From Christensenella sp. UBA6094 (GTDB lineage Bacteria; Bacillota; Clostridia; Christensenellales; UBA6094), in the NCBI GenBank assembly GCA_002435915.1, contig DIWY01000003.1:73369-137368 (forward strand): a DNA stretch of 64,000 nt, written 5' to 3'. The position numbers and the translations under genes are program-made. Under the pieces are notes generated by a model. The model did no database searches, was not told where the DNA came from, and saw only the letters and a program-made list of their open reading frames with translations. Numbering within the stretch: the stretch's first letter is position 1; every line of letters begins with the position of its first letter. Positions 25,835-43,907 of the stretch are shown piece after piece.

Positions 25835-25846
25835 GGAGGGAGATAA

Positions 25847-27120: not shown

Positions 27121-27189
27121 ATACCCGTTAAAAGAAATTTAACACATTGAAAAGAGCAATATTATAGAGCAAATTATTAGTAACTATAC

Positions 27190-28113: not shown

Positions 28114-28304
28114 CAAAGTAAAGGTAAACAATAACATTTAATAAAGATGTTAGTGTTTAAAGAAGTTAAAAGTAATTTCGTAAAGACATATAGAGAATTG
28201 GGTTGCATCATAGTATGGCGATTATTGACCAAATAATAATAGAATAACGTGATAAAAATAGCAACGACTTAAACAGGAACATCGTATATAGACAAATAAG
28301 ATAC

Positions 28305-28806
28305 AGAAGAGGTGTAAGCATGGCAATAAAGAGTTACCCATACTCATCAGTAGATGGTGATAGAAAAATAACAGCCTCGGATGAGGCAAAGAGGTTAGAT
28401 CTAATAGCAGACAGCGGAATAATATTCGACGTTCCTACGTCATTCGAGTGCTCAAAAGTAACAGGCACAATGAACATAAACGTTGCAGCAGGCTCAGCGC
28501 TAGTAGCAGGGCATGGGATTATATCAGATGCTACAGAGACAGTCGAAATATCTGCAAGTGATTCGGCATACTCCCGTATAGACGTTATAGCGCTCGAGAG
28601 CAATACAAATACAGATATAAGAGCTGGGCGGATTGTAGTAATAAAAGGCACAGCAGCGGCTACACCAGTAGAACCAGCGCTAAGTACGGAAGCAGGCGTG
28701 GCGCAGATAAAGCTAGCTAAAATATTGATCCCAGCAAGTGTGTCGAGTTTAAGCACAGCAACACTTACAGAAATGCGTTCAGCATCCGTTGGAAAGCATA
28801 AACATT
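28305..28806 (+). repeat. RBP N-terminal module, direct repeat copy 2 of 3
   Basis: About 96% nucleotide identity to copy 1 over the first ~330 nt (by eye). Divergence begins after the GKH(T/K/N)H junction. Confidence 0.9.
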
Positions 28807-29312
28807 CGAAGGCTCAAATAACTGGTGTAAGTAGTTGGAATGGTATTATTGGCGAAATTAAAGCTTTTGCAGGATCGGCAGCTCCAACAGGTACTTTACT
28901 TTGTGATGGATCGGCAGTGAGCAGAACAACGTATTCTGCTCTTTTTGCTGTAATAGGCACTAATTACGGAGCTGGGAATGGTAGCACAACATTTAACCTG
29001 CCAAATATGAAGGGTAAAGTGCCAGTTGGGTATAACTCGGCTGAAACAGAGTTTAATGTGCTCGGGAAAACAGGTGGGGAGAAGACGCATATAAATACAA
29101 TTGCAGAAATGCCAAATCATACTCATGCAATTTCAACTACTGTACATTCGGAGGAAGGAACGCATGACTGGGAATTTGTAGTTGGCACTGGTGCTGGTAC
29201 AAGAGCTTTAACATTATTTAAATCTATCACTGCAGCATATACAGGTGGTGGAGGATCACATAATAACTTGCAACCATACGTAGCTGTTAATTACATAATT
29301 GTCTATGCTTGA
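28320..29312 (+). CDS. Receptor-binding / tail-fibre protein, paralogue 3 (C-terminal tail-collar domain)
   Basis: The C-terminus carries FAGSAAPTGTLLCDGSAVSRTTYSALFAVIGTNYGAGNGSTTFNLPNMKGK, the collar-domain signature. Confidence 0.8.
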   Translation: MAIKSYPYSSVDGDRKITASDEAKRLDLIADSGIIFDVPTSFECSKVTGTMNINVAAGSALVAGHGIISDATETVEISASDSAYSRIDVIALESNTNTDIRAGRIVVIKGTAAATPVEPALSTEAGVAQIKLAKILIPASVSSLSTATLTEMRSASVGKHKHSKAQITGVSSWNGIIGEIKAFAGSAAPTGTLLCDGSAVSRTTYSALFAVIGTNYGAGNGSTTFNLPNMKGKVPVGYNSAETEFNVLGKTGGEKTHINTIAEMPNHTHAISTTVHSEEGTHDWEFVVGTGAGTRALTLFKSITAAYTGGGGSHNNLQPYVAVNYIIVYA

Positions 29313-29387
29313 TCATATTAAGAGCTACTACAGATATAAATAGAAATCAAGACTAAGAAGTGATAACGGCAAAATCAGCGATAACAA

Positions 29388-29898
29388 ATAAAACACAAGT
29401 GAGGTATAAGTATGGCAATAAAGAGTTATCCATATTCATCAGTAGATGGTGATAGAAAAATAACAGCCTCAGACGAGGCAAAGAGATTAGATTTAATAGC
29501 AGGTAGCGGAATAATATTCGACGTTTCTACGTCATTCGAGTGTTCAAAAGTAGCTGGAACTATGAACGTGAATGTATCGGCAGGTTCTGCGTTAGTAGCT
29601 GGGCATGCAATCATATCGGATTCTACAGAGACAGTCGAAATATCTGCAAGTGATTCGACATACTCCCGTATAGACGTTATAGCGCTCAAGAGCAATATAA
29701 ATACAGATATAAGAGCTGGGCGTATTGTAGTAATAAAAGGCACAGCAGCAGCAGCAATTCCAGTTGAGCCAGCGTTAAGCACTGAAGCAGGAGTCGTGCA
29801 GATAAAGCTAGCTAAGATACTGATCCCAGCAAGTGTAGCAAGTTTAAGCACAGCAACACTTACTGACTTGCGCACAGCATCAGTGGGTAAGCATAATC
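29388..29898 (+). repeat. RBP N-terminal module, direct repeat copy 3 of 3
   Basis: Roughly 90% identical to copies 1 and 2 (by eye). Shares the upstream AAACACAAGTGAGGTAT with copy 1. Confidence 0.85.
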
Positions 29899-30899
29899 AT
29901 TCGCAAGCTCATATTACAGATATGGTTAGTAATATGTATCAGAACGGTTTCGTTAATGGTGATATGCAAGTGTGGCAGATGGGGACAAGTATTGTACCAT
30001 CTGCAGCTAATAAATACTATACAGCGGATATGTGGAAGGCATATAGAGATGCTTATGATGCGAACCTCCATGTCGCACAAACCACTTACAATGGAAGTAT
30101 ACCTACTCATACATTACGAACTACAAGGGGTACAGGCGACACAGTAGTTACGCCTATTAGAATTGGGTACAATTTTACAACAGAAGAAAGTAAAAAGTAT
30201 AGGTTGAAAAAAGTAACAGTTTCATTTGTTTCAAAAATTGGTGCAGACGCGGCAGGAACATATGCCGCATATATAAACGCAGGAACAGGAACCGACCAAG
30301 ATATTATAACGGGATTCACTGGACAATCTATCCTAGCAACACTTTCGTTTACACCTACTACAACCAATCAAGTATTTACATTTACAACAAGCGCAGTTGT
30401 TGCGTTAGCGGTAAATCAATTAGCTTTTGTAGTTAAATACACACCATCCACAGCTACAGCAGGAGCAAACGACTATATAGAAATAACAAACTGCAATTGG
30501 AGTGCAACAGATTACTATGTGCTATTTTCACCAAAGAGTTTCTCTCAAGAGCTGAGAGATTGCATGATTTATTATGAAAAAAGTTTTTCATATGCCACTG
30601 CTATTGGCGCAAACACAGCGTATGGAATGTATAATCGTAGTGGAAGTAGTAATGCTCTTAACAATGTGCGTATTCATGTACCGTTTAAGGTTAATAAGAG
30701 GGCAACGCCAACCGTTGTGTTTTATACAACAACAGGTACAGTAGGCTCATGGAAATATGAACGCAACGGAGAAACAAGCACAGTTACGCCTGTTAATGAT
30801 TATACAAACGAAAATGCAATAGTCGCCTATATGGGCGTTGGGGCAGCATGGGTGGTGGCACTAGTACAAGGACACTGGGTGGCAGATGCACGAATATAA
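29412..30899 (+). CDS. Receptor-binding / tail-fibre protein, paralogue 4 (long unrelated ~330-aa C-terminal domain)
   Basis: Shares the N-terminal module. The C-terminus (NGFVNGDMQVWQMG...ADMW...) is unrelated to those of paralogues 2 and 3. Confidence 0.75.
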   Translation: MAIKSYPYSSVDGDRKITASDEAKRLDLIAGSGIIFDVSTSFECSKVAGTMNVNVSAGSALVAGHAIISDSTETVEISASDSTYSRIDVIALKSNINTDIRAGRIVVIKGTAAAAIPVEPALSTEAGVVQIKLAKILIPASVASLSTATLTDLRTASVGKHNHSQAHITDMVSNMYQNGFVNGDMQVWQMGTSIVPSAANKYYTADMWKAYRDAYDANLHVAQTTYNGSIPTHTLRTTRGTGDTVVTPIRIGYNFTTEESKKYRLKKVTVSFVSKIGADAAGTYAAYINAGTGTDQDIITGFTGQSILATLSFTPTTTNQVFTFTTSAVVALAVNQLAFVVKYTPSTATAGANDYIEITNCNWSATDYYVLFSPKSFSQELRDCMIYYEKSFSYATAIGANTAYGMYNRSGSSNALNNVRIHVPFKVNKRATPTVVFYTTTGTVGSWKYERNGETSTVTPVNDYTNENAIVAYMGVGAAWVVALVQGHWVADARI

Positions 30900-30912
30900 A
30901 AGGGGTGAGTAA

Positions 30913-31593
30913 ATGTTCGAATATATTATAGATAAAGAGCTAGTGTTTAAGGGCACCAAAAAGAGATTCACAAAATCTCCACAAAGAATTGTGCTACATC
31001 ATAGTGGCGCAAGTGCAGACCAAACAGTGGAGCAAATACATAACTATCATATAAATCATAATGGATGGCTAGGAATTGGTTACAATGCCCTTGTTGATAA
31101 AAACGGAAACGTGTTTTGGAGCAGAGGAATTGAATACGTTGGAGCACATTGTAAAGGATACAATGAGACAAGTGTTGGCATATGTGCTATTGGTAATATG
31201 GAGACGGGTCAAATGCCTGAGAAGCAGAAAACAAGCATAATTAAGCTTGTGCAAGATATAAAAACGTTCTACCCATCAATTACTACAGTCTGTGGACATA
31301 AAGAACTTGCGGCTACTGATTGCCCAGGTAAGAATTATCCACTTGAGGAAATCAAGAATTCTAAAGCACAAGCGATAGTTAAAGAGACTAAGCAGACATT
31401 AAAATTTGGTAGCCGTGGCAATGAAGTAAAAACGTTGCAACAAATGCTCATAAGCCATGGAGTTAACCCTGGTAAAGTTGATGGGATATTCGGAAAAAAC
31501 ACAGAGAAAGCAGTAAAAGAATTTCAAACTAAGGAAGGCATAGTGGTGGACGGTATAGTGGGCAAAATTTCATGGGGCAGATTGGGGGCGTAA
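30913..31593 (+). CDS. Endolysin: N-acetylmuramoyl-L-alanine amidase (Amidase_2/PGRP) with a C-terminal PG_binding_1 domain
   Basis: RIVLHHSGAS...GYNALVDKNG...GAHCKGYN...CGHKELAATDCPG in the catalytic part. The C-terminus carries LKFGSRGNEVKTLQQML...VDGIFGKNTEKAVKEFQ. Confidence 0.85.
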   Translation: MFEYIIDKELVFKGTKKRFTKSPQRIVLHHSGASADQTVEQIHNYHINHNGWLGIGYNALVDKNGNVFWSRGIEYVGAHCKGYNETSVGICAIGNMETGQMPEKQKTSIIKLVQDIKTFYPSITTVCGHKELAATDCPGKNYPLEEIKNSKAQAIVKETKQTLKFGSRGNEVKTLQQMLISHGVNPGKVDGIFGKNTEKAVKEFQTKEGIVVDGIVGKISWGRLGA

Positions 31594-31599
31594 CGCCAT

Positions 31600-31893
31600 A
31601 TGGTCGATAACATGGGTGAAAGGGTCAGGGCAGTCGAGGAGGGTCTTAAAGCTACAAAGGAAAGGCTTATTAAGGCTGAAGACATTATAGACACTATCCA
31701 TAAATTAACGATGAGCATTGACAGAATAGCAGGACAAGTTGATATGCAGAGCAAAGACATAGCAAATATGTCAGAAAGAATTAGTAGCATTGAGGATATA
31801 CCTAGAAGACGATGGAACGAAGTCGTAAAGACGCTGATCGCTTTGGGATTAGGTATGCTACTCGAATATTATTTAAAAAGAGGGGCAATTTAA
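31600..31893 (+). CDS. XhlA-like lysis-associated membrane protein
   Basis: 97 aa. N-terminal coiled coil plus a single C-terminal TM (VVKTLIALGLGMLLEYYL), as in Bacillus PBSX XhlA. Confidence 0.6.
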   Translation: MVDNMGERVRAVEEGLKATKERLIKAEDIIDTIHKLTMSIDRIAGQVDMQSKDIANMSERISSIEDIPRRRWNEVVKTLIALGLGMLLEYYLKRGAI

Positions 31894-32154
31894 ATGGATT
31901 TAATGTCGTATATAGTGAGTGAGGGGCTTATTTTGATACCGGTCTTATACTTGATCGGTATGGCTATAAAATCGACACCAAATATGCCAGATTGGTTGAT
32001 ACCATATATTTTAGGTGCGCTTGGGATAGTGGGTGCAGTTGCAATTTTGGGCATTAGTGTAAATTCGGTAATTCAAGGGATACTGGTAGCAGGAGCGGCA
32101 GTATACACTAACCAGACAATTAAGCAGATACAGCTCAAAGATACAGAGGAGTAA
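31894..32154 (+). CDS. Holin (two TM helices)
   Basis: 86 aa. Two hydrophobic helices plus a charged C-terminus. Abuts xhlA with no intergenic gap. Confidence 0.7.
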   Translation: MDLMSYIVSEGLILIPVLYLIGMAIKSTPNMPDWLIPYILGALGIVGAVAILGISVNSVIQGILVAGAAVYTNQTIKQIQLKDTEE

Positions 32155-32162
32155 GTAAAAAA

Positions 32163-32192
32163 GCGAGGCGACGTAAGTTGCCTCGCTTTTTT
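32163..32192 (+). terminator. Intrinsic terminator at the right end of the tail/lysis cluster
   Basis: GCGAGGC (32163-32169) pairs with GCCTCGC (32180-32186), followed by T6. Confidence 0.75.
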
Positions 32193-32361
32193 GCGTTTTA
32201 ATAGAAATTAAACCAATCCAAGATATGAAAATCTATTATAATACAAAATAAGAGTAAATCTGCTAAAAAACCAGAGAAAGCTCTCATTTTATTGTCACTT
32301 TATAGACATTTTTAAGATTTTTATGTTAAGCTATTTGTGGTAAATAATGAGGAGAAATTCA

Positions 32362-33654
32362 ATGGGAAACCTTAGTGGCTTATTAGATATAATTAAAAAT
32401 TATATTAAAAATAATAAAACTCTTGTGCTTGATAGTGTATGGGTTGGAATAGTCGCGGGCACAATAGCAGTTGCATACCGTTTTGTCATAACTTCTGCAG
32501 ATTTAATATTAAAAAATATCTGGGATTTTGCTCAAGGTAGCCCTATTTTAATTCTGTGTTGGTTCGTTGCACTTATAGTGCTAGGGCTAGTTGTCGGTAA
32601 GATCATCAAATGGGAGCCAATGATATCTGGCAGCGGCATCCCACAACTAAAAGCTGAGACGGAAGGAAGGCTTGATCCAAGCTGGCTTAGAGTAGTGATC
32701 GGCAAGTTTATTGGAGGCTTCTTGTGCATTTTAGGTGGATTATCACTCGGTCGTGCTGGCCCTTCAATACAGCTTGGTGCAATGTCAGGCAAAGGCGTTT
32801 CCAGAAAACTTAATAGAGGAATAGATGAAGAAAAACAGCTTATTAAATGCGGGGCATCAGCAGGACTTGCCGCAACGTTTAATACACCATTTGCAGGAGT
32901 AATATTTTCTATAGAGCAGTTGCAAAACAAATTTTCTTTATCAATATTTTTGCCACTACTTGTAGCAGCACTTGTGGCTGATTTTATATCTAAGATTGTT
33001 TTGGGTTCTAACACCATATTCCATTTTAAAGAAGGCGCAATTATGCCATTACAGTACTATTGGCTTCTTTTAGTACTTGGACTTATAATTGGAATACTTG
33101 GTGTGCTTAACGATAAAGCCACTATACTTGTAAAAAAAACATTTGATAAAATCACATGGATAAAACCTCAATATAGAATAATTATTCCATTCATATTGGC
33201 CGGATTAATAGGAATAGTTTTGCCGCAAATACTTGGCTGCGGAAGCACACTGATTTCACTCATCACAAGCGGAAACCTTACACTTAATATGCTTTTGCTT
33301 TTATTGGCAGCGAAATTTATATTCTCTATAATCTGCTTTGGCTCAGGAGCTCCTGGCGGAATGTTCTTTCCATTGCTTGTAATTGGAGCATATATTGGCA
33401 TAGTATACGGAACTTTGGTAGTTTCGCTTTTGGGGCTTGATCCAGCGCTTGTTTACAATTTTATAATTATTGCTATTGCTGGGTATTTTGCGGCGGTAGT
33501 ACGCACGCCTATTACAGCAATTATTCTTATCGCTGAAATGACAGGATCGATAACCAATGTGTTATCAATAACAATAGTTGCGGTTACTTCCTATTTGATC
33601 GCATATTTGATTAAACACGACTCAATAATGGATAGTTTATTGAAAGTCATGTAA
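32362..33654 (+). CDS. ClC-family chloride channel/transporter homologue
   Basis: ATG at 32362 follows GAGGAG. Motifs GSGIPQ, GRAGP (in place of GREGP) and GGMFFPLL. Confidence 0.85.
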   Translation: MGNLSGLLDIIKNYIKNNKTLVLDSVWVGIVAGTIAVAYRFVITSADLILKNIWDFAQGSPILILCWFVALIVLGLVVGKIIKWEPMISGSGIPQLKAETEGRLDPSWLRVVIGKFIGGFLCILGGLSLGRAGPSIQLGAMSGKGVSRKLNRGIDEEKQLIKCGASAGLAATFNTPFAGVIFSIEQLQNKFSLSIFLPLLVAALVADFISKIVLGSNTIFHFKEGAIMPLQYYWLLLVLGLIIGILGVLNDKATILVKKTFDKITWIKPQYRIIIPFILAGLIGIVLPQILGCGSTLISLITSGNLTLNMLLLLLAAKFIFSIICFGSGAPGGMFFPLLVIGAYIGIVYGTLVVSLLGLDPALVYNFIIIAIAGYFAAVVRTPITAIILIAEMTGSITNVLSITIVAVTSYLIAYLIKHDSIMDSLLKVM

Positions 33655-33790
33655 TTAATTAAAGTTTTTATAATAAACCAATTTAAAAAGATATAGAAAA
33701 TATAAAATATCATATAAATCATGGTTTATTACTTATATAAATGGGTATATATTATAAGCAAAAATATAATTGTAAAGGGCGGATAAAAAA

Positions 33791-34330
33791 ATGGCTAAGG
33801 TTAATACAGGAGAAAAAGCATTAGATTTTACTTTTAATACTCTAAACGAACAAGGATTAAAACTATCTGATGTAATCAAAAATGCAGACAAAACAGTTAT
33901 TCACTTTCTAAGATACTATGGTTGTACAGTTTGTCAATTAGACATTAGAGACTATGCTAAAAATATTAAATTAATAACAGACAAGAATGCTCAACTATTT
34001 GTTGTACTTCAAAGTAAGCCAGAAACAATTTTAGCATCTAAGGGTGAATTGGAATTGCCATTTGATATCATTTGTGACCCTGACCAAGAAATATACAAGT
34101 TATATGATATTGGCTCTTGGACTGATACAAAAGAAATTGTAAACGATGAATTAACTAAAAAAGGCGCAAGATGCAAAGAAGAAGGATTAGTTCATGGCGA
34201 ATACGAAGGCAATGAACAGCAACTTCCAGCACTTTTCATTATTAACAAAGATATGAATCTAGATTATGTTCTATATTCAAAGGATCTTACAAGCATACCT
34301 TCAGTTGAAAAGATTGCTGAGATGTTATAA
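33791..34330 (+). CDS. Peroxiredoxin-like (AhpC/TSA, PRX_like2-type) CxxC protein, paralogue 1 of 5
   Basis: 179 aa. Motifs FLRYYGCTVCQLD, PFDIICDPDQ, HGEYEGNEQQLPALFII. Confidence 0.7.
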   Translation: MAKVNTGEKALDFTFNTLNEQGLKLSDVIKNADKTVIHFLRYYGCTVCQLDIRDYAKNIKLITDKNAQLFVVLQSKPETILASKGELELPFDIICDPDQEIYKLYDIGSWTDTKEIVNDELTKKGARCKEEGLVHGEYEGNEQQLPALFIINKDMNLDYVLYSKDLTSIPSVEKIAEML

Positions 34331-34353
34331 GAATTCGTTTTCCGAGCACATAA

Positions 34354-34382
34354 AAGAGATTGTTTATACAATCTCTTTTTTA
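34354..34382 (+). terminator. Intrinsic terminator after paralogue 1
   Basis: AAGAGATTGT pairs with ACAATCTCTT, followed by a T-run. Confidence 0.7.
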
Positions 34383-34477
34383 ATTATAAATATTTAGAAC
34401 TATAAGAAAATAAGTGGTTAAACCTAGTGCTAATTGGGTAAATATTATGTATATTTTGAATAAAAGGAATGATTTAA

Positions 34478-35020
34478 ATGGCTAAGGTTAATACAGGTGA
34501 AATGGCTCTAGATTTTACGTTTGATACAGTTAAAGAAAATGGTCTGAAATTATCTGATGTAGTTAAAAATGCGGATACTACTATTGTTCATTTCCTAAGA
34601 TACTATGGTTGCCCTACTTGCCAATTGGATATTAGAGACTACATGAATTTATATGATGAAATAAAAAATAAGAACGCGCAAGTATATGTAGTTTTGCAAA
34701 GCAAACCACAGATAATTAAAGATGCTTTGGGAGAAGATGCATTACCATTTGACATCATTTGTGATCCTGACCAAGAAATATACAAGCTTTATGAGATTGG
34801 TTCATTAACTGACAGAAGCTTAGTAGACATGGACAAAATGAAGGACAAAATCGCAAAAATTCAAGAACTCGGAATAGAACATGGTGAATACGAAGGTAAC
34901 GAACAACAATTAACTGCAATCTTTATTATTGATAAAGATATGAATCTAAAACATGCTCAATATTCAGTTACTGTAACTGATATGCCTTCACCAAAAGAAG
35001 TTGTTGAAACATTAATATAA
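34478..35020 (+). CDS. Peroxiredoxin-like CxxC protein, paralogue 2 of 5
   Basis: 180 aa. YYGCPTCQ. Colinear with paralogue 1. Confidence 0.7.
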   Translation: MAKVNTGEMALDFTFDTVKENGLKLSDVVKNADTTIVHFLRYYGCPTCQLDIRDYMNLYDEIKNKNAQVYVVLQSKPQIIKDALGEDALPFDIICDPDQEIYKLYEIGSLTDRSLVDMDKMKDKIAKIQELGIEHGEYEGNEQQLTAIFIIDKDMNLKHAQYSVTVTDMPSPKEVVETLI

Positions 35021-35048
35021 TTAGAGATTAATAAAAGGGCTGATAAAA

Positions 35049-35588
35049 ATGGGTAAAGTAAAAGCAGGCGATAAAGCAATAGATTTCACATTTAATACAA
35101 TTGCTGAAACAGGTCTAAAGTTATCGGATGTAGTGAAAAACGCAGACACTACTATTGTACATTTTCTAAGATATTATGGCTGCACTACTTGCCAGTTGGA
35201 CATCCGAGATTACATGAAACTAACTGACAAAATTAAAGATAAGAATGCTCAGCTATACGTTGTTCTTCAAAGTAAGCCAGAAATAATTACTGCATCCATG
35301 GAAGAAGCGTTGCCGTTTGATATCATCTGTGACCCAGATCAACAGCTTTATAAGCTTTATGAAATAGGCTCATTAACTGATCCGAGTTTAATAGATATGG
35401 AAAAGAAGATGGCTAAGAGAGCTAGAGTTCAAGAGGCGGGCTTAGTACATGGCGAATATGAAGGCAATGAACAGCAGTTAACTGCTTTGTTCATTATGGA
35501 TAAAAACATGGTGCTAAAATATGCACAATATTCACTAAGTAACACAGATATGCCTTCATCAGATGAAGTAGTTGAGACATTAATATAA
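35049..35588 (+). CDS. Peroxiredoxin-like CxxC protein, paralogue 3 of 5
   Basis: 179 aa. YYGCTTCQ. 28 nt after paralogue 2. Confidence 0.7.
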   Translation: MGKVKAGDKAIDFTFNTIAETGLKLSDVVKNADTTIVHFLRYYGCTTCQLDIRDYMKLTDKIKDKNAQLYVVLQSKPEIITASMEEALPFDIICDPDQQLYKLYEIGSLTDPSLIDMEKKMAKRARVQEAGLVHGEYEGNEQQLTALFIMDKNMVLKYAQYSLSNTDMPSSDEVVETLI

Positions 35589-35613
35589 TTTTAATTGAAA
35601 AGGACTGACAAAA

Positions 35614-36156
35614 ATGGGCAAGGTAAAAACAGGCGAAAAAGCAATAGATTTTACGTTTAACACCGATAATAAGACTGGGCTAAAGTTGTCAGATGTAGTT
35701 AAGAATGCTGATAAGACTATCGTGCATTTTCTTAGATACTATGGCTGCCGTATTTGCCAATTGGACATTAGAGATTACGTAAAATTATATGATCAAATAA
35801 AAGCAAAGAATGCTCAGCTATTTATAGTATTGCAAAGCAAACCTCAAACAATCAAAAATGCTGCAACAGAAGTGGCGTTCCCGTTTGATATCATATGTGA
35901 CCCAGATCAAGAGTTATATAAGCTTTATGATATTGGTTCTATGACGGAGTCAACTGTTATGGACAAAGAAAAGATGGCGGCTGCATCTGCACGCATTCAA
36001 GCCTCAGGTCTAGTACATGGCGAATATGAAGGCAATGAGCAACAATTACCTGCAATCTTCATTTTAGATAAAGATATGAATGTTTTATATGATAAATATT
36101 CAGATAATTTAACTGACTTGCCTTCACCAGCTGAAGTTGTAGAAACATTAATATAA
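35614..36156 (+). CDS. Peroxiredoxin-like CxxC protein, paralogue 4 of 5
   Basis: 180 aa. YYGCRICQ. 25 nt after paralogue 3. Confidence 0.7.
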   Translation: MGKVKTGEKAIDFTFNTDNKTGLKLSDVVKNADKTIVHFLRYYGCRICQLDIRDYVKLYDQIKAKNAQLFIVLQSKPQTIKNAATEVAFPFDIICDPDQELYKLYDIGSMTESTVMDKEKMAAASARIQASGLVHGEYEGNEQQLPAIFILDKDMNVLYDKYSDNLTDLPSPAEVVETLI

Positions 36157-36235
36157 TCGCGTGATTAGAATGTATTTCTAATACTAAAAGGTTCACATGG
36201 ACACTTCAATAATATTTATTTTAGGAGTGGAAAAA

Positions 36236-36775
36236 ATGGCTAAAGTAAAAGTTTCGCAACAAGCATTAGATTTTACATTCGATACGCTTTATGAAAAAGG
36301 TCTAAAACTATCAGATGTAGTTAAGAACGCAGAAACGACTGTAATACACTTTTTAAGATATTACGGTTGTACTCTTTGTCAATTAGATATAAGAGAATAC
36401 ATAAAATCAGCTGAAGCTTTCAAAAAGAAGAATGCTCAATTGTTAATTGTTCTGCAAAGCGATCCAGAAATCATAAAAGAATCTCTTGGAGAAGAAACGT
36501 TACCATTCGATATTATTTGTGACCCAGATCAAGAGTTATATAAGCTTTATGACATTTGGTCCTTTAAAGGCAAATTATCACAGATAAGTCCGAAACTAAT
36601 CTCGAAAATGTTAAAGGCAAAGAAGCTTAACCTTGAGCATGGTAAGTTTGAAGGTAATGAAGAGCAACTTCCAGCATTATTTATTATAGATGCTGATATG
36701 AACATAAAGTATGCAAACTACCCAAATAACCTTGCTGGTATTCCGCCAGTGGAAGAGATACTGGAAATGATTTAG
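36236..36775 (+). CDS. Peroxiredoxin-like CxxC protein, paralogue 5 of 5
   Basis: The start MAKVKVSQQ at 36236 is parallel to the other paralogues (the ORF track starts at 36197). YYGCTLCQ. HGKFEGNEEQLPALFII. Confidence 0.7.
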   Translation: MAKVKVSQQALDFTFDTLYEKGLKLSDVVKNAETTVIHFLRYYGCTLCQLDIREYIKSAEAFKKKNAQLLIVLQSDPEIIKESLGEETLPFDIICDPDQELYKLYDIWSFKGKLSQISPKLISKMLKAKKLNLEHGKFEGNEEQLPALFIIDADMNIKYANYPNNLAGIPPVEEILEMI

Positions 36776-36793
36776 AAAATTTATCATATTAAC

Positions 36794-36830
36794 AAAAAGG
36801 AGTAGATATATTATATCTACTCCTTTTTGT
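36794..36830. terminator. Bidirectional terminator between the PRX-like array and the convergent ABC operon
   Basis: AAAAAGGAGTAGATATA pairs with TATATCTACTCCTTTTT in a long palindrome. Confidence 0.75.
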
Positions 36831-36849
36831 TAAAATACTATTGCATAGA

Positions 36850-37431
36850 TTACATTTGGATTATTTCAGCACCTAAGTACTTAGCTTCATCAATATCATG
36901 GGTGACAAATATGGCACATTTATTCACCAAATGAGATTTAACAATATCCATTACATTATATTTAGTATCGTCATCTAAGCCTTTAAAAGGCTCGTCCATT
37001 ATAATAATATCCGCATCATATAGAAGTGCTCTTGCGATAGCAACACGACGTTTCATTCCACCGCTAAGCTTACTCACGGCTTCATTTGTGCTACCATTTA
37101 GGCCGAGTTCATTAAGCAGAGCAGTTATTTCGGCTTTGCTTACGGCATCACCGCATACAAAAGCGATATTATCAACTGCATTTAGCCAGTTTAGCAGTCT
37201 ATCTTCTTGGAACACTACAGATATTTTCTTGCCAACGACACCTTCTATTGTTCCGCTATCAGGTTTAATAAGCCCTATAATTATATTAATCGCTGTTGTT
37301 TTTCCTACACCAGATGGGCCCATAATACAATTAATACTGTTATCTTTAAAGACTGCAGAAAAATTATTAAGGACAGCTTTATCATTAAAATTTTTGCTGA
37401 TGTTACCGAGCTTAATTGGCAATCTTATCAC
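36850..37431 (-). CDS. ABC transporter ATP-binding protein (NitT/TauT-like, short form)
   Basis: Walker A GPSGVGKTT, signature LSGGMKRR, Walker B IIIMDEP. Confidence 0.85.
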   Translation of the reverse strand: MIRLPIKLGNISKNFNDKAVLNNFSAVFKDNSINCIMGPSGVGKTTAINIIIGLIKPDSGTIEGVVGKKISVVFQEDRLLNWLNAVDNIAFVCGDAVSKAEITALLNELGLNGSTNEAVSKLSGGMKRRVAIARALLYDADIIIMDEPFKGLDDDTKYNVMDIVKSHLVNKCAIFVTHDIDEAKYLGAEIIQM

Positions 37432-38206
37432 CCCAATCCAAGCTGATATTATTCTTAAGTAATTTTATAAGAACAAAAAACAGCTTTTCAATAATAATGC
37501 TAATTATTATGATTACTACAGTCCAAGCAAACAAATCTGGAGTTTCTAAGAAGATTTTCGCATTATAAAGTGAAAAACCAATTGAGTTATTGGGTAGGCC
37601 GATTACTTCCGCAGCTATACCAGATTTCCAGCTGAAACCTAGACCTACAGAGCATGCCGCGCTGTAGTAGGGCAGAAGAGAGGGTATATAAATGTATTTA
37701 AACTTTTTGGAAGAAGGCACATTAAAGACATTTGCCATATCAAGAAGCTTTCTATCAATATTCTCAAGCCCTATTAGCATATTTGTATATATGATAGGAA
37801 GTACCATAAGAAAGCTTATGAATGTTGACAGGTATGCAGTGTTGATCCAAACAAGTGTTAATATGATAAACGATGCAACCGGTGTTGCTTTCATAATCGA
37901 GATAACGGGAGATAGAAAGTCTCGGAAAAATGTGCTTTTATTTGATAACAAAGCAAATACAACCCCAAAAATGTTTGCAAGAATGAAACCAAAGAATATT
38001 TTTGTGAATGAATTAAATATCGAGTTCCAAAAAGACGAATCAGCCCCAAGCTGAATTATCCTTTGAACGACAACAACAGGAGATACTAGTAGTATCTCCT
38101 GCGCAATTAACATACTCGCTAACTGCCACACACATATCCATAGTGAGGCAAATAACATTTTTCTGATAGTTTTATTGTATTTACTTATTGTAATAGAAGT
38201 TGTCAT
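37412..38206 (-). CDS. ABC transporter permease (NitT/TauT-like)
   Basis: Multi-TM protein with a binding-protein-dependent permease layout. The start is taken at ATG 38206, which follows AGGA. Confidence 0.8.
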   Translation of the reverse strand: MTTSITISKYNKTIRKMLFASLWICVWQLASMLIAQEILLVSPVVVVQRIIQLGADSSFWNSIFNSFTKIFFGFILANIFGVVFALLSNKSTFFRDFLSPVISIMKATPVASFIILTLVWINTAYLSTFISFLMVLPIIYTNMLIGLENIDRKLLDMANVFNVPSSKKFKYIYIPSLLPYYSAACSVGLGFSWKSGIAAEVIGLPNNSIGFSLYNAKIFLETPDLFAWTVVIIIISIIIEKLFFVLIKLLKNNISLDWGDKIAN

Positions 38207-39212
38207 CAGGCAGTTTTCCTCCAACGGATGCTGCGTTTTGTTCGTATAGTGCTTTTAAATATCCGGAAATTTTTGTTTTCATTTCTGATCCGTCTATATA
38301 TGTAACGTTACATTTTGGTATAGCTATTTGTGCAATTGCTGAGGGAACAATGTTATTTTTCTCAACAAGCTTTGCAGTTTCATCGATATTTGTGTTAGCG
38401 TATTCAGTTGATTTTTTGTATTCAGCCAAGAATGCATCAACTTTAGCTTTATTATTCTTTAATACTTCATTTCTAACAATTAACACGCCTGTTACAACTG
38501 ATCCATTAGAACCATTACTAGCTTTATCCCACTCAGCGGACACATCAAGAGCTATACGTAGATTTTTGTTTTTCGTAAGCACTGTTGTAACGTATGGTTG
38601 AGGTAACATAGCTATTGCAGCTTTGTCTTGGTCAAGCATTGCTGCTACTTCTGTTGATTCGGATTTATATACAATTGTAACATCTTTTTCAGGGTTTAGT
38701 CCATTTGCTTTTAAGATGTAGTTAAGAGTATATTCTGGAGTTGTACCTTTACCTGTAGAGTAGATCGTTTTTCCTTTTAAATCTTTGACAGAATTAATGG
38801 TAGTGCCATTTTCTACTAAATAAAGTACGCCCAGAGTGTTAATGTTTGTTACAGTGATTGCACCATTTGTCTTATTATACAATACTGAAGCTAGGTTACA
38901 AGGAACTGCTGCGATATCTACTTCGCCTTTTATAATTTTTGCAGTTATTTCGTCAGGTGTACCGACAATAGTAAAGTTATAATTGCTTGCAGTTTTACCT
39001 TGGCTAGCGTCCTCAATTAGTTTTACCATACCAATAGCTGTAGGTCCTTTTAAAGCCATAACATTTAAACTATCTTTAGATGCTGTCGCACCAGGAAGTT
39101 GAGTTTGTGTTGCGATTGGCGAAGGAGCGGCAGTTGTACTTGTGCAAGCAGTAAAAATTGAAAGAGACATAATTAATGCGGTAATTGAAATAAGTGTCTT
39201 TTTTAGGTTCAT
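38181..39212 (-). CDS. ABC transporter substrate-binding lipoprotein (NMT1/THI5-like fold); substrate unknown
   Basis: Lipobox IFTAC and a periplasmic-binding-protein layout. First gene of a three-gene operon. Confidence 0.75.
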   Translation of the reverse strand: MNLKKTLISITALIMSLSIFTACTSTTAAPSPIATQTQLPGATASKDSLNVMALKGPTAIGMVKLIEDASQGKTASNYNFTIVGTPDEITAKIIKGEVDIAAVPCNLASVLYNKTNGAITVTNINTLGVLYLVENGTTINSVKDLKGKTIYSTGKGTTPEYTLNYILKANGLNPEKDVTIVYKSESTEVAAMLDQDKAAIAMLPQPYVTTVLTKNKNLRIALDVSAEWDKASNGSNGSVVTGVLIVRNEVLKNNKAKVDAFLAEYKKSTEYANTNIDETAKLVEKNNIVPSAIAQIAIPKCNVTYIDGSEMKTKISGYLKALYEQNAASVGGKLPDDNFYYNK

Positions 39213-39360: not shown

Positions 39361-40197
39361 TCAGAACACTACTTCCTTAGTTATGGTATCAGAGGGTTCT
39401 TTTTCAAACTTGTTTTCAATCAAGAAGCCTTCTAGCGTTGGGTTCTCAAGAGGTATGGTGCAAGTGATTTTGTTTACACCTTTTGCTTTAGCATATTGTT
39501 TAGCAAAATCTAGGCATTTTTCATAATCGCCATGCATCATTGCAATGTGTAAAGATAAATTATGCTGGAATCTTGAACCGCAAACTATAAAGCTACCACT
39601 TTCTTTATCTTCGAAGACTTTTCCTTCGGATGCAAGCCCTCTGGCTGTGCTTTCACTTATACGAAAGAACGTACGGTTAAACACTAAGTAACCATGATAC
39701 TCGTCGCTTAGAGGTAAGATTAGCTCTACTGCTCGGTCACTTGAAACGTGTGAGAAATTATGATCTTCTTTAGGCGCTTTGAAGTTAGCTAAATTATAAC
39801 CACGGAACTGGCAAGCCTTATGTAAGCCATATTTTTCAGCAAGACCAGCGCTTATTATATTTGATGCTCCTGTATACATAGCCATTGATGGACAACCATA
39901 TTTTTTTGCTTGCTCAATATATGATTTATAGATGGCTTTGCCTACACCTTTGCCTTGGTACTCGGGGTCAACGCGTAATGTTTCTAGCCAACCACTACCG
40001 TCATAAAGAACTGTGAATTTGCCGATGCCAACCATTTTACCGTCAACGAACGCGCAATTTAGTTCGCCAGCAGTAGAATTGAAATAATCCCATACATCTT
40101 TTAAATAGCAATAGTCGTTCATGGCAGCCTTTTCTACCGCTGTACATTGCCCAAGATCCTCGTTAGTGGCGTACTTCATTATTATTTCCATTATCAT
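39361..40197 (-). CDS. GNAT family N-acetyltransferase (two-domain)
   Basis: The acetyl-CoA binding motif is LRVDPEYQGKGVGKAIY. Confidence 0.75.
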   Translation of the reverse strand: MIMEIIMKYATNEDLGQCTAVEKAAMNDYCYLKDVWDYFNSTAGELNCAFVDGKMVGIGKFTVLYDGSGWLETLRVDPEYQGKGVGKAIYKSYIEQAKKYGCPSMAMYTGASNIISAGLAEKYGLHKACQFRGYNLANFKAPKEDHNFSHVSSDRAVELILPLSDEYHGYLVFNRTFFRISESTARGLASEGKVFEDKESGSFIVCGSRFQHNLSLHIAMMHGDYEKCLDFAKQYAKAKGVNKITCTIPLENPTLEGFLIENKFEKEPSDTITKEVVF

Positions 40198-40311: not shown

Positions 40312-41514
40312 TCAATCGTGCCTTAATGCCTCAATTGGCCGTAACTTACTGGCTGTATTTGCAGGGTATAGACCGAACACTACACCAACTGCGACGGAGA
40401 ATCCAATTGCCAGAAGAACTAAGCCACCAGAGATAGCAAGCGTCATACTTAGTACATTCGAAAGTATAATTGTACATATATAGCCAAGCAAAAGTCCAAT
40501 TACACCACCACTTAATGAAATTACAATGGATTCAATAAGGAATTGCAATAGGATATCTTTGCGTTTTGCTCCAATGGCTTTTCTTATGCCTATTTCCTTT
40601 GTTCTTTCACTTACTGAGACAAGCATTATATTCATTATGCCTATTCCGCCAACTAGAAGCGAGATACCTGCTATGCCGCCTAGCATTGCTGTAAGCGTAC
40701 TTGTTGTTGACGCAACAGTCTCGATCAGTTCATTTTGGTTGTATATTTTGTAGCTAGAGTTTGTTGTTGTGCCATCTGAAGATACTGTACTCGTAACACC
40801 AAGCTTATCATCTAAAAAGCTGGATATTTTATTTTCAGCTTGAGTAATCGTATCTTCTGACGTTGTGGAAACGTAGAACGATTTTATTGAAGATTGTAGG
40901 AATATTCTTTGTGCAGTTGAAAAGGGTATGATTATTCGCTCATCATCATTAGATGTAGATGATGTACCTGTACTTGTTAGAACACCGACAATTGTGAACT
41001 GTTTGTTTTCAATTGTGATCGTTTCGCCGATACAATCTGTTGTCCCAAAAAGATTTGTAGCTACATCGACACCAACAACGGCGTTCGTTAGTTTGTATTC
41101 AATATCAACGTCTGTTATGTATCTGCCATAATCTAATGTATCACCAGCAATGCTTTCGTACGATGGATAGATTCCAATTATCTTGGTGTCTTCATCAGTT
41201 TGGCTTCCGCTTTTTGTCGTTACGGAAGATGAGAGTGAAGGAGATATGTTTTCAATTCCGTTACTCCCTGCAAGCTCCATAAGTTCGCTAGCAGTAAAAG
41301 ATTTTGATGAGTTACTAGTTATCGTAACTGTAAGCGTGTTTGATCCTAGCGCTTTAATTCGACTTGTAACTTGATCTCCAGCACCTTGCCCGATTGATAC
41401 AAGAACTATTACAGAAAGAACACCAATTATTATACCGAGCATGGTAAGAATGGAGCGCATCTTATTATATTTTATAGAGAGTAGTGCCATTTTTAGCCCT
41501 TGAAAAAATGTCAT
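40312..41514 (-). CDS. MacB-type ABC permease (FtsX domain with a large extracytoplasmic domain)
   Basis: 400 aa. TM1, a ~230-aa external domain, then a 3-TM FtsX C-terminus (KEIGIRKAIGA). Confidence 0.85.
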   Translation of the reverse strand: MTFFQGLKMALLSIKYNKMRSILTMLGIIIGVLSVIVLVSIGQGAGDQVTSRIKALGSNTLTVTITSNSSKSFTASELMELAGSNGIENISPSLSSSVTTKSGSQTDEDTKIIGIYPSYESIAGDTLDYGRYITDVDIEYKLTNAVVGVDVATNLFGTTDCIGETITIENKQFTIVGVLTSTGTSSTSNDDERIIIPFSTAQRIFLQSSIKSFYVSTTSEDTITQAENKISSFLDDKLGVTSTVSSDGTTTNSSYKIYNQNELIETVASTTSTLTAMLGGIAGISLLVGGIGIMNIMLVSVSERTKEIGIRKAIGAKRKDILLQFLIESIVISLSGGVIGLLLGYICTIILSNVLSMTLAISGGLVLLAIGFSVAVGVVFGLYPANTASKLRPIEALRHD

Positions 41515-42203
41515 ATGGCATCACCTGCCCTATAAATATTTTCGTTTACTATTTTCCCGTCACGTATCTCTATACTTCTTTGAGCTTCTTTTGCTAGTGA
41601 CATATCATGCGTAATTAGCATGATTGTATTGCCGTTATCATTTAGCTCGTGTAGTAGAGCTATTATCTCTTTACCAGATTTACTATCAAGGTTACCTGTA
41701 GGTTCGTCGGCTAAAATAAGGGAGGGGTTTGTAACAAGAGCTCTTGCTATAGCAACTCTTTGCTGCTGACCTCCAGATAATTCAGTTGGTCTATGCTTAA
41801 CTCTACCCTCGAGTCCAACTTTTTTTAGAGCTTCAATCGCTTTTTCTTTTCTTTCATTTGCACTAATTCCCTGATATATAAGAGGGAGTTCCACGTTTTC
41901 TAGTGCTGTGAGTTTCGAGAGTAGATTAAATCCCTGAAAAATAAAACCGATTTTTTTATTTCGTACTTCGCTTAATTGTCTATCGCTTAAGTGCGTTACA
42001 TCCGTGCCAAAAAGTATATATGTTCCTTCGTCTGCTGAATCAAGGCAACCAACAATATTCATAAGAGTGGATTTTCCTGAACCAGAAGGGCCAACAATAG
42101 ATACAAACTCTTTGTCTTGGATGGTAATGGAGACATCATCTAGGGCATTTACAGTTTCTTCGCCCATTGCATATCTCTTTTTTATATTGTTTAGTACTAA
42201 CAT
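41511..42203 (-). CDS. MacB/LolD-type ABC ATP-binding protein
   Basis: Walker A GPSGSGKST, signature LSGGQQQRVAIARAL, Walker B ILADEPTGNLD. Confidence 0.9.
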   Translation of the reverse strand: MLVLNNIKKRYAMGEETVNALDDVSITIQDKEFVSIVGPSGSGKSTLMNIVGCLDSADEGTYILFGTDVTHLSDRQLSEVRNKKIGFIFQGFNLLSKLTALENVELPLIYQGISANERKEKAIEALKKVGLEGRVKHRPTELSGGQQQRVAIARALVTNPSLILADEPTGNLDSKSGKEIIALLHELNDNGNTIMLITHDMSLAKEAQRSIEIRDGKIVNENIYRAGDAI

Positions 42204-42242
42204 GCACATTACCTCTTATTTCATTAAGTTGTTATCTAATTA

Positions 42243-43907
42243 TTAGTTGCTTGGTTTTTGTTGAGAGTCTGGTCTTGTCCCACCAGTACCACCAGCACCG
42301 CCTGTTCCTGAGCCACCAGTCAAACTTTGAACGCCCATCATGCCAGCTGCGCCACTTGAAGATGAGGAGCCAGCATTTCTGTAATAAATAGTATCGCCTT
42401 CATTCAGTCCCGATGTTATTTCTGCATACGAGCCATTGATTAAGCCTACTGTAACTGTAGTTCTACCGCTTTGAGTAGTTGCTGTACCTGTAGATTGAGT
42501 ACTAGATGGAGCTGCAGTGTTAGTAGCTGTGCTTGTTGTGCCAGATACGCTTGTTAATACGTACTTATTATCACCACTACCAAGGATGGCTCCAACAGGT
42601 ACTAGAAGTATATCCGTTTTTGATTCAGTCACTATTGTAGCGCTTGCGTTCATGCCAGCATTAACACCTTCTGCGTCTTTAATTACTATTGTTACAGGGT
42701 AAGTTGTGACACTGCCAGTAGTGCCTACTCGAGATACGCTTGTAACAGTACCTGTATAGGTTTTGTCATCGATAGCGTCAAACGTAATTTTTGCTGTTTG
42801 ACCGATCTTAACATCATTGATATCTTCTTCATCCACAGCAATTTCAATCGCCATATCTGAAGAAGTTTTTATTGCGCATAGTTCGTCGCCAGATTTTACA
42901 GTATCTCCTACTGATAGATTCTGACTAACTAAAGTGCCATCAGAAGTTGCCTTTATAGTAAGAGCGGCAACTTTAGCTTTGCTAGTTGCGTAGTTTTGGG
43001 CTGCTTGTTCTCTTTTAGCTATTAAGCTTTCAGTTGAGGAAGAGAGCGCACCTGAAATAGCAAACAATTTGCTACCCTGCGTAACTGTGGAATTTACGCT
43101 ATAGTAAACAGCAGTAATTGTTCCTGTTGTTGCTGAAATTGTAATAGGCTTATTTGGAACGAGTGTGCCAGTACCTATTACAGTACCGCTTGAATTTTTA
43201 GCAGTTACTTTTGTATCCATGCTGTATGTATCACCAGCGACTAGTATTTTTGCCGATGTGCTGGAGGCTTCAGTAACAGTTGCTGTTTTAGTTGTGCTAC
43301 CGATAGTAAGAGTAATTTTGTCTCCAACACTAACTTTCGTATCGCCTAATGTTACATTAAGCACCATGTTGCCATCGGTAGATAGGAGCATAAGCCCATC
43401 GTATTTTGCGATAATTACAGGAACACTTGAGTTTGTCGTTGCATATATTTTTTTGATTCTCGCATCTACTGGCGCATATATGTAGCCGTCGCTAGTAGAT
43501 TGGTTTGATGAAGTAAGTTCAAGATCGATTGCAGTTAATGAACTTTTAAGACTATTTGTTTCACTGACAAGAGTGCTGTTTGTGAGTACTGCAATTACAT
43601 CTCCGGCTTTTACTTCCTCGCCAGCATTTTTATACACAGCGCTAACAGTTCCGTCAGATTGAGCGTATGTATATGCGGTACCAGTGGAATTAACTGTTCC
43701 GCTTCCTTCAATTGATACCTCTATATTGCCTTTGGTAACAGTTGTGGAACTATAGCTGTCTAAAGCTGACGCGGTACTTTTATTGAATTGGGAGCTGATT
43801 AAAACAAAACCTATAATTGCAACTACTAGAGCAGAAGAAGTTAATATAATGATTTTTTTCTTTTTCTTCATGTTCTTAAAGTTTTTCATGTTCTCCATTA
43901 CCTTCAT
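42243..43907 (-). CDS. HlyD-family membrane-fusion (periplasmic adaptor) protein with a Gly/Ser/Thr-rich C-terminal tail
   Basis: N-terminal TM anchor, lipoyl-like/beta-barrel segments, and a C-terminal GGSGTGGAGGTGG tract. First gene of the adaptor-ATPase-permease operon (YknXYZ-like). Confidence 0.7.
   Translation of the reverse strand: MKVMENMKNFKNMKKKKKIIILTSSALVVAIIGFVLISSQFNKSTASALDSYSSTTVTKGNIEVSIEGSGTVNSTGTAYTYAQSDGTVSAVYKNAGEEVKAGDVIAVLTNSTLVSETNSLKSSLTAIDLELTSSNQSTSDGYIYAPVDARIKKIYATTNSSVPVIIAKYDGLMLLSTDGNMVLNVTLGDTKVSVGDKITLTIGSTTKTATVTEASSTSAKILVAGDTYSMDTKVTAKNSSGTVIGTGTLVPNKPITISATTGTITAVYYSVNSTVTQGSKLFAISGALSSSTESLIAKREQAAQNYATSKAKVAALTIKATSDGTLVSQNLSVGDTVKSGDELCAIKTSSDMAIEIAVDEEDINDVKIGQTAKITFDAIDDKTYTGTVTSVSRVGTTGSVTTYPVTIVIKDAEGVNAGMNASATIVTESKTDILLVPVGAILGSGDNKYVLTSVSGTTSTATNTAAPSSTQSTGTATTQSGRTTVTVGLINGSYAEITSGLNEGDTIYYRNAGSSSSSGAAGMMGVQSLTGGSGTGGAGGTGGTRPDSQQKPSN

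Follow-up and report, generated by a model that had tools for sequence, protein, structure and literature searches.

Introduction

Peroxiredoxin-like proteins with a CxxC motif are abundant, and are routinely labelled as peroxiredoxins or antioxidant enzymes. Five genes for such proteins lie in a row on the + strand of the stretch considered here, a 64-kb window of contig DIWY01000003.1 from Christensenella sp. UBA6094, where they occupy positions 33791-36775. Amongst described systems, the BCP/PrxQ thiol peroxidases (Aeropyrum pernix BCP, PDB 2cx3; Sulfolobus Bcp1 and Bcp4, 3drn and 3hjp) belong to the same Pfam family as the products of this array, display the same thioredoxin-derived fold and likewise place the reactive cysteine, C48 in the array proteins, at the peroxidatic position on a helix N-terminus. 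At an identity to BCP/PrxQ of no more than 21%, however, the array proteins replace the catalytic threonine of peroxiredoxins (Prx) with cysteine, the motif proline with arginine and the catalytic arginine with proline or threonine, and a family insertion of ~25-30 residues takes the place of the arginine-bearing loop. The genomic partners of the family are different too, being C-S lyases and not peroxide-defence genes.

Other described proteins resemble the array products in the motif itself. The PRX_like2 family (cd02970), the NCBIfam family NF040769 and eukaryotic selenoprotein L (SelL) all carry CxxC (UxxU in SelL) on the Prx scaffold, whilst the array proteins differ from NF040769 and SelL in scoring 64-78 bits against a cutoff of 120 and in having no selenocysteine. 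To our knowledge, neither the PRX_like2 family of CDD nor SelL has an assigned biochemical function. PRXL2A, PRXL2B and PRXL2C (PF13911) are also Prx-like proteins with CxxC, in which the dithiol serves to reduce a small molecule, either an endoperoxide or one that is no peroxide; PRXL2B, for its part, is known as prostamide/prostaglandin F synthase. The characterised PRXL2 members are, however, animal proteins with unrelated substrates, and the likeness of the array proteins to them is one of profile, in copies 2, 4 and 5. TlpA, ResA and StoA similarly combine CxxC with a thioredoxin fold and an inserted helical region, and structures 4nmu, 3kcm and 3gl3 are amongst the fold matches to the array proteins. 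These are membrane-anchored or secreted proteins that act on cytochrome c or spore proteins, whereas the array proteins are without a signal sequence. In the searchable literature, no functional study of a bacterial PRX_like2, SelL or PRXL2 member was found, nor was a lyase-redoxin partnership for PRX_like2/SelL-type proteins, nor a function for a five-gene array of this kind, for which the first-pass annotation of the window had also known of none.

New here are a series of two, three, four and five copies at one position in related genomes, CxxC dipeptides that are stable for each paralogue, and a coupling of the family to C-S lyases by operon and by fusion. Taken as a whole, these are best explained by an old panel of paralogues of a CxxC reductase of cysteine-derived sulfur species, the copies of which would be tuned in their redox properties, an explanation to which we give slightly better than even credence.

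Five intact paralogues in tandem

The open reading frame (ORF) listing of the window contains five consecutive members of one paralogue family, given here with their relationships to members from other loci (L and P numbers):

33791-34330, + strand: copy 1, 179 aa, active site C-T-V-C; Pfam AhpC-TSA 62.6 bits; orthologous group at 100% bootstrap
34478-35020, + strand: copy 2, 180 aa, active site C-P-T-C; orthologues in L009, L015 and P0007, all PT
35049-35588, + strand: copy 3, 179 aa, active site C-T-T-C; groups with two TS copies of L001 (83% bootstrap)
35614-36156, + strand: copy 4, 180 aa, active site C-R-I-C; groups with L009 copy 3 and P0003 (100% bootstrap)
36236-36775, + strand: copy 5, 179 aa, active site C-T-L-C; most diverged of the five copies

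The products align with one single-residue gap. ORFs and alignment alike bear out the first-pass description of consecutive, colinear, same-strand genes for proteins of 179-180 aa, with TV, PT, TT, RI and TL as the dipeptides within CxxC. For copy 5, the mechanical ORF reaches back to an ATG at 36197, with the start at 36236 being favoured by the alignment and by an AGGAG ribosome-binding site. Intergenic spacers measure, in order, 147, 28, 25 and 79 nt, as anticipated at first pass for copies 2-4 (25-28 nt) and for the gap before copy 5 (~80 nt).

Pairwise identity amongst the copies is 54-74% for protein, close to the 55-75% previously judged by eye, and 61-75% for DNA. Synonymous divergence (dS) ranges from ~1 to >3, and is hence saturated, whilst the ratio of nonsynonymous to synonymous divergence (dN/dS) is 0.06-0.23. 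The five units also emerge independently from a repeat search (families D1 and D2), in which each unit includes its ribosome-binding site. Exact identity between copies extends for 35 nt at most, and since the copies are without long identical tracts, both recent gene conversion and an assembly artefact are argued against; gene conversion or concerted evolution was thus excluded as an account of the array. Judged by its divergence, the array is an ancient duplication held by purifying selection, with all five copies intact. The saturated dS, the low dN/dS and the lack of identical tracts therefore uphold the first-pass view of an old and maintained amplification that is no artefact of assembly. 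The sequence blocks that had been listed as invariant are also present, but one of them, LKLSDVVKNA, varies, with Ile29 in copy 1. As the listed blocks recur across 108 family members, they are a signature of the whole subfamily, and are not specific to the array.

Family, fold and active site

The first-pass annotation had placed the proteins in AhpC/TSA PRX_like2 and proposed a profile search to fix the family. That search returns a redox family, and not a non-redox one, with Pfam AhpC-TSA (PF00578), for which the cutoff is 26 bits, scoring all five copies at 52.5-65.7. The AhpC/TSA part of the assignment therefore stands, whilst the PRX_like2 part is an agreement of the motif mapping with the definition of CDD cd02970, which we take to be a CxxC motif with its second cysteine at the peroxidatic position and the other two residues of the Prx triad absent. 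The best full-length NCBIfam match is the SelL-related redox protein NF040769, at 64.1-77.9 bits against the curated cutoff of 120, with the alignment spanning model positions 2-172 of 173. Because these scores lie under the cutoff, membership in that curated family is not established, and the array proteins are better regarded as a sister subfamily. For the second Pfam model, PF13911 (AhpC-TSA_2, gathering score 27), copies 2, 4 and 5 score 27.9, 44.8 and 35.2, respectively, and copies 1 and 3 score 22.9 and 26.0.

A model of copy 4, built with AlphaFold2 (AF2) from the 108-sequence family alignment, has a predicted local distance difference test (pLDDT) score of 95 and a predicted template-modelling (pTM) score of 0.91. 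In the PDB, Foldseek matches it best (probability 1.0) to Prx structures of the BCP/PrxQ, AhpC and 1-Cys kinds, along with TlpA-like oxidoreductases. Template-modelling (TM) scores of 0.6-0.73 and identities of no more than 21% indicate that solved structures share the fold, but that none is close. Mapping of the active site by profile alignment to A. pernix BCP (2cx3) sets C48 on the peroxidatic cysteine, C45 on the catalytic Thr/Ser and R41 on the motif proline, and the position of the catalytic arginine is held by Pro146 (Thr in copies 2 and 3). In place of the universal Prx motif PxxxT/SxxC, the proteins thus display R41-Y-Y-G-C45-x-x-C48. Residues F39, R41, Y42, G44, C45, C48, D96, H135, G136, E139, G140, E142 and Q144 are invariant in the 108 family sequences, in which conservation of C95 and P146 reaches 90% or more, and the family-specific insertion comprises helix 118-131 plus an invariant H-G-x-Y-E-G-x-E-x-Q-L-P-A. 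The N-termini (MAKVxxGE...) enter the first strand without a hydrophobic leader, and show no sign of a signal peptide or membrane anchor. With both the Prx motif and the catalytic arginine replaced, the five proteins are, by their predicted active site, cytoplasmic CxxC dithiol oxidoreductases on a Prx scaffold, and not classical peroxidases.

One rival explanation holds that these are nonetheless true thiol peroxidases of the BCP/PrxQ type, which shield the anaerobe against peroxides and have become specialised, copy by copy, for hydroperoxide or reductant. AhpC-TSA is the best domain match, no solved structures are closer in sequence or fold than those of BCP/PrxQ proteins, and the second cysteine does fall on the peroxidatic position. 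Nevertheless, PxxxT/SxxC and the catalytic arginine are both replaced across the 108 family members, and matches to the thiol peroxidase models of NCBIfam reach just 17-22 bits, where the cutoff is 140. As the threonine and arginine that activate peroxide in Prx are absent, peroxide is probably not the main substrate, and the peroxide role implied at first pass becomes unlikely, as does this explanation as a whole.

The SelL-related match to NF040769 also counts in favour of selenium handling, be it by reduction of selenocystine or by taking selenide from a lyase, the latter then acting as a selenocysteine lyase. Pyridoxal phosphate-dependent C-S lyases commonly cleave C-Se bonds too, which likewise speaks for this idea. 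Moreover, bacterial Prx-like selenoprotein families with UxxC and UxxU exist (PMC2398784). The NF040769 scores are, however, well short of the cutoff, selenocysteine is absent (all five copies have cysteine, with no in-frame TGA), and no selenium-utilisation genes are found amongst the annotated neighbours in the window or at related loci, making a selenium function very improbable.

As dedicated protein-disulfide reductases, the array proteins would act on particular clients, be it the neighbouring transporter, the ClC exchanger or other redox-sensitive enzymes, in place of small molecules. CxxC on a thioredoxin-superfamily fold is typical of such enzymes, there are weak ResA/StoA model matches alongside the TlpA-like structures, and C-terminal regions specific to each paralogue could dock clients. 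Against this, ResA scores are 20-33 bits for a cutoff of 170 and StoA scores 23-27 for a cutoff of 210, no signal peptide or membrane anchor is evident, and adjacency to the ClC and ABC genes is limited to the window's lineage (0/42 loci elsewhere). Were the lyase itself the client, this account would merge with that of a reductase of cysteine-derived sulfur species; as a separate explanation, we consider it improbable.

Association of the family with C-S lyases

Eighty family loci were taken from metagenomes and scanned with custom hidden Markov models (HMMs); 52 of these loci were informative in having enough upstream sequence. In 22 of the 52 (42%), the ORF immediately 5′ of the Prx-like gene, in the same orientation, is PatB-like, with gaps of -11 to 113 nt. 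A PatB-like gene also precedes the Prx-like gene in L006, L007, L008, L017, L018, L099 and L101. Two unrelated genomes, L007 (Lachnospiraceae JC7) and L008 (a Vallitaleaceae metagenome-assembled genome), have, in this order, an amino-acid permease gene, a class I/II aminotransferase-fold gene and a Prx-like gene, whilst the order in L017 is RidA, permease, aminotransferase-fold gene and two Prx-like genes, and in L018 the aminotransferase-fold gene is followed by two Prx-like genes. The aminotransferase-fold gene adjoins the Prx-like gene likewise in P0069 and P0061. In NCBIfam, this neighbour is a PatB-family C-S lyase, at 282-366 bits against a cutoff of 340 that is passed in L008. Outside the window's lineage, a count of neighbours at the 42 loci that span 5 kb or more returned PatB-like genes at 20, amino-acid permeases at 12, DUF401 at 7, M20 at 6 and RidA at 5, with ClC, Ssu-like transporter and GNAT genes at none.

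Association extends to gene fusion. An exhaustive profile search yielded 3673, 980 and 132 cluster representatives at E-values of ≤1e-3, ≤1e-10 and ≤1e-30, respectively. Four independent fusion clusters combine a PatB-family C-S lyase (355-404 bits, cutoff 340) with a Prx-like domain, and two more combine a D-cysteine-desulfhydrase/CuyA-like PALP enzyme (below cutoff) with such a domain, which in these PALP fusions scores nearer the NF040769 cutoff (92-104 bits). Linkers in the fusion proteins are continuous, and LRYxGCxxC is kept in six of the eight checked. For PatB-type lyases, the documented substrates of cleavage are cystine, cysteine, cystathionine and S-alkyl-cysteines (PMC11203769), and such lyases also turn cysteine sulfoxides into thiosulfinates (PMC13197776). 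The association itself is observed, in operons and in fusions; from it we infer the reaction, namely that the family most likely acts on cysteine-derived sulfur species. The same partners weigh further against thiol peroxidases, in that the family is linked or fused to C-S lyases and not to AhpF, thioredoxin reductase or peroxide regulators.

Other arrangements occur within the family. P0147, P0238 and P0123-P0125 comprise an MmgE/PrpD fusion, an M24 peptidase/creatinase fusion and tandem double Prx-like ORFs, the latter carrying unlike CxxC dipeptides (e.g. PT+TV, RS+SS). A second conserved partnership involves a 411-aa DUF401 membrane protein at lyase-free loci (L035, L043, L044, L056 and L081, about 6559-7791 in each), the gene for which lies 16-22 nt downstream on the same strand in 7 of the 42 loci of at least 5 kb. 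In L014, L003, L018 and L083, genes for Flavodoxin_5, flavin reductase, nitroreductase and 4Fe-4S proteins adjoin family genes, and are possible electron donors for re-reduction of CxxC.

Copy-number series and orthology

Four related Clostridia contigs share a locus order of ClC gene, array and convergent Ssu/Tau-like ABC operon. Within this fixed frame there are two Prx-like copies in L015, three in L001, four in L009 (the last with one frameshift) and five in the window. Amongst 103 sources, one copy is present in 83 and two in 17, with three, four and five found in L001, L009 and the window, respectively. At five genes, the array of the window thus exceeds all others seen; pairs occur commonly, and three or more copies are confined to the window's lineage. 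The first-pass annotation had allowed that such an array might prove common and already explained in relatives, but at least three copies occur only in close relatives.

Orthologous sets were taken from a neighbour-joining (NJ) tree with bootstrap:

Copy 1 group: TV (TI in 2/7 members); bootstrap 100%; four genomes plus metagenome members
Copy 2 group: PT; bootstrap 76%; window, L009, L015 and P0007
Copy 3 group: TT/TS; bootstrap 83%; window, and L001 with a recent duplicate pair
Copy 4 group: RI; bootstrap 100%; window, L009 and the singleton P0003
Copy 5 group: TL; bootstrap not applicable; window and L009

The copy 1 lineage carries an additional conserved cysteine, Cys128 (ARC[K/Q]E). In L009 (3838-4378), the copy 5 orthologue is broken by a single frameshift near codon 80, and is either a pseudogene or an assembly error. 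The singleton P0003 (L010-L013 and L016) is 76% identical to copy 4 and has the active site C-R-I-C. It is surrounded by transposase genes (IS21, ISL3 and DDE) and adjoins a divergent LysR regulator; 53 blocks of the collection contain it, and it thus resembles a mobile form of the copy 4 type that is under regulation.

These groups bear on whether the array is a gene-dosage amplification of one function, or a set of redundant and drifting copies. Tandem same-strand units with the ribosome-binding site within the repeat would suit such an origin, as would the range of two to five copies amongst relatives and the frameshifted orthologue in L009, which indicates that copies can be lost. Dosage arrays are normally near-identical, however, whilst here there are no gene-conversion tracts, dS is saturated and five intact copies are under purifying selection, and from genome to genome the dipeptide and C-terminal region of every orthologous group are preserved. 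Dosage or redundancy is for these reasons a decidedly unlikely explanation.

Divergence between paralogues

Comparison within and between the orthologous groups separates three regions of the protein:

Residues 1-104 (core): identity 83% within groups, 71% between; divergence ratio 0.60
Residues 105-134: identity 64% within groups, 39% between; divergence ratio 0.60
C-terminal 30 residues: identity 80% within groups, 48% between; divergence ratio 0.39

The first inner residue of CxxC is the sole position in the N-terminal 100 that is fixed within all groups and has at least three states between them. The segment at residues 105-134, predicted as a loop followed by helix 118-131 in the copy 4 model, was ruled out as a specificity element because its within/between ratio equals that of the core; it is a fast-evolving region and not one fixed by group. 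Of the ~105-130 divergence described at first pass, the rapid evolution is thus retained, but not its fixation by paralogue, as the segment varies within groups too. The C-terminal 30 residues are a better candidate for paralogue-specific function.

In thioredoxin-family proteins, the CxxC dipeptide tunes redox potential and thiol pKa. Group-stable dipeptides, together with strong purifying selection, support a functional divergence centred on the redox motif. The subfunctionalisation suggested at first pass accordingly survives in the dipeptide, stable per paralogue across genomes, but not in the variable loop, which diverges in the same ratio as the core. Where other loci of the family have two copies, the combination is mostly TL+RI, so dipeptide divergence after duplication is a recurrent feature, and duplicated or unlinked members are diverse at this site. 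TL is the commonest dipeptide overall, and is found in 21/31 lyase-linked members.

Proposed function

Motif and fold suggest that the proteins work by dithiol-disulfide exchange at CxxC. C48 would attack an electrophilic sulfur substrate, C45, which stands in place of the Prx threonine, would resolve the mixed disulfide, and a system of the thioredoxin or flavodoxin type would then return the oxidised CxxC to the dithiol state. Commonest across the family, and ancestral to it, is an operon of amino-acid permease, PatB-type C-S lyase, Prx-like protein and sometimes RidA, with the family most likely reducing cysteine-derived sulfur species made or used by the beta C-S lyase. Candidate substrates before cleavage are cystine or a mixed disulfide. 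Cystine cleavage yields cysteine persulfide, which, along with sulfenic acid or thiosulfinate, is a candidate substrate after cleavage, whilst RidA would dispose of the 2-aminoacrylate by-product.

In the window's lineage, the gene would have left the lyase and grown stepwise from two to five copies at the fixed ClC-ABC locus, with each copy fixing its own dipeptide (TV, PT, TT/TS, RI or TL) and its own C-terminal region. Since the dipeptide would tune potential and pKa, the copies probably differ in their potentials, substrates or partners. As the window copies keep all of the family invariants, their chemistry is probably the same as that of lyase-linked members.

Several observations weigh against this proposal. 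About half of the family loci are without a nearby lyase, and within the 64-kb window there is no C-S lyase, amino-acid permease or RidA gene. The window copies are just 44-47% identical to the nearest lyase-linked members, and the NJ tree supports the groups of copies 2 and 3 only modestly (76% and 83%, respectively). The family may also have a minor peroxidase activity. For a proposed grouping of C-S-lyase-coupled Prx-like proteins, the array belongs to the same sequence family, though with neither adjacency nor fusion to a lyase at its locus. Given the missing lyase and the distance to linked members, it is from the family that we infer the function of the array.

Predicted transcription signals and neighbouring genes

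Predicted transcription signals and flanking genes are as follows:

32347-33654, + strand: ClC-type H+/Cl- exchanger gene; Pfam Voltage_CLC 318 bits, ClcA-like in NCBIfam, below cutoff
33743-33790, + strand: block 5′ of copy 1, with -10-like GGTATATATTAT and ribosome-binding AAAGGGCGGAT; kept in the window, L009, L001 and L015 (alignment)
34352-34379, + strand: hairpin with 12-bp stem and T-run 3′ of copy 1, resembling an intrinsic terminator
34433-34477, + strand: block 5′ of copy 2, ATTGGGTAAATA ... TATATT ... AAAAGGA; conserved between the window and L009 (alignment)
36789-36833, no strand assigned: perfect 21-bp palindromic hairpin at the array end, with A- and T-runs on its flanks, before the convergent ABC operon
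36850-39212, - strand: NitT/TauT (Ssu/Tau-like) ABC importer (ATPase, permease and binding protein), convergent with the array
39361-40197, - strand: GNAT gene, beyond the ABC importer
44080-45258, - strand: M20 amidohydrolase gene, beyond GNAT

The block upstream of copy 1 may act as its promoter, and that upstream of copy 2 is a candidate promoter and ribosome-binding site serving copies 2-5. The hairpin behind copy 1 has a folding energy of -14.1 kcal/mol (z -3.8), with 0/200 shuffles folding equally well, and is retained in L009 with an altered stem, as befits the terminator that the first-pass annotation had given this gene. The hairpin at the array end is stronger (-26.8 kcal/mol, z -9.2), and is likely a two-way terminator. 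There are, accordingly, two predicted transcription units, one of copy 1 by itself and one of copies 2-5 together. Rfam at gathering thresholds gave no match to an RNA leader or riboswitch before the array, and structured RNA in the ClC-copy 1 and copy 4-5 spacers was rejected, as folding there is no better than in shuffles (z about -1).

The ClC gene adjoins the array in all four syntenic genomes and at 0/42 other family loci. A functional link of the array to the ClC, ABC or GNAT genes was rejected on the grounds that such adjacency is found only in the window's lineage (0/42 elsewhere), and it is regarded as lineage synteny; a link to M20, present at 6/42 other loci, is weak. For the transporter binding protein, the nearest named relatives are from Clostridia (Anaerocolumna, Lachnospiraceae and Clostridium sp.), at ~55-64% identity. 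In L015 (5427-10970), M20, two GNAT and Ssu/Tau-like ABC genes are contiguous on one strand, whilst in both the window and L001 a MacB/FtsX-ABC-HlyD efflux module (40312-43907 in the window) lies between the GNAT and M20 genes.

Upstream of the array there is a phage-like block of ~16.5 kb (15626-32194). Its genes include an S24/HTH repressor (15626-16381, - strand), and Mu Gam-like, tape-measure-like, Dit and minor-tail genes, and towards its end come genes for an amidase (30913-31593) and a holin (31894-32154), followed by a strong terminator (32155-32194). The block yielded neither an integrase nor an att repeat, and a scan of ten of its ORFs gave no capsid, portal or terminase match, with a weak head-scaffold match only; its content suggests either a siphophage that is defective or a tailocin of the F type. 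Between 25183 and 30899 it carries four tandem tail-fibre-like paralogues with a common ~300-nt 5′ module at 64-94% identity (starts at 25183, 27192, 28298 and 29390; repeat families D3 and D4) and unlike C-termini, which could be an alternative receptor-binding protein set. The array starts 1.6 kb downstream of the lysis cassette. The phage-like block is at least partly present in L001 and L009 and is absent from L015, and since the ClC gene and array persist in L015 without it, the array is chromosomal, and its carriage as prophage cargo was ruled out.

Elsewhere in the window, a 67-nt direct repeat of 75% identity (13693-13759 and 15179-15245) brackets a major facilitator superfamily (MFS) transporter gene (13905-15089), the first repeat copy beginning directly after the tRNA-Lys of an Arg, His, Gln and Lys cluster (13347-13690). 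A thiamine pyrophosphate (TPP) riboswitch (50347-50455, - strand) precedes a ThiW thiamine-precursor transporter gene (49782-50342), and a T-box leader (55063-55300, - strand) precedes a class IV (branched-chain-type) aminotransferase gene (53905-54930).

Implications for the family and its hosts

Tandem redox paralogues are unsurprising as such. The coupling to lyases, however, speaks against 'peroxidase' as the default label for these proteins, and suggests a testable role in the breakdown of sulfur amino acids, with a possible tie to microbial production of persulfide and H2S. Gut Lachnospiraceae are described as producing persulfide and reducing power in a cystine-dependent manner, and the passages of that report matched by a term search name no bacterial enzyme (PMC12999317). 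The module of lyase plus reductase is a candidate source.

More speculatively, and with doubt clearly outweighing belief, the family could supply a dedicated reductase that is so far missing from a catabolic cystine/cysteine-conjugate module (permease, PatB C-S lyase and RidA) in gut and rumen Clostridia. The array would then be a panel, graded in potential or in substrate range, for the variety of organosulfur compounds that come from diet or host, amongst them disulfides, sulfoxides and thiosulfinates. If this were so, the reductase would set the outcome of cleavage, be it cysteine persulfide and supersulfides, H2S, or free thiols. As regards the tuning of potential and specificity by the dipeptide, the array itself, with five intact paralogues that set different CxxC dipeptides on one scaffold, constitutes a natural experiment.

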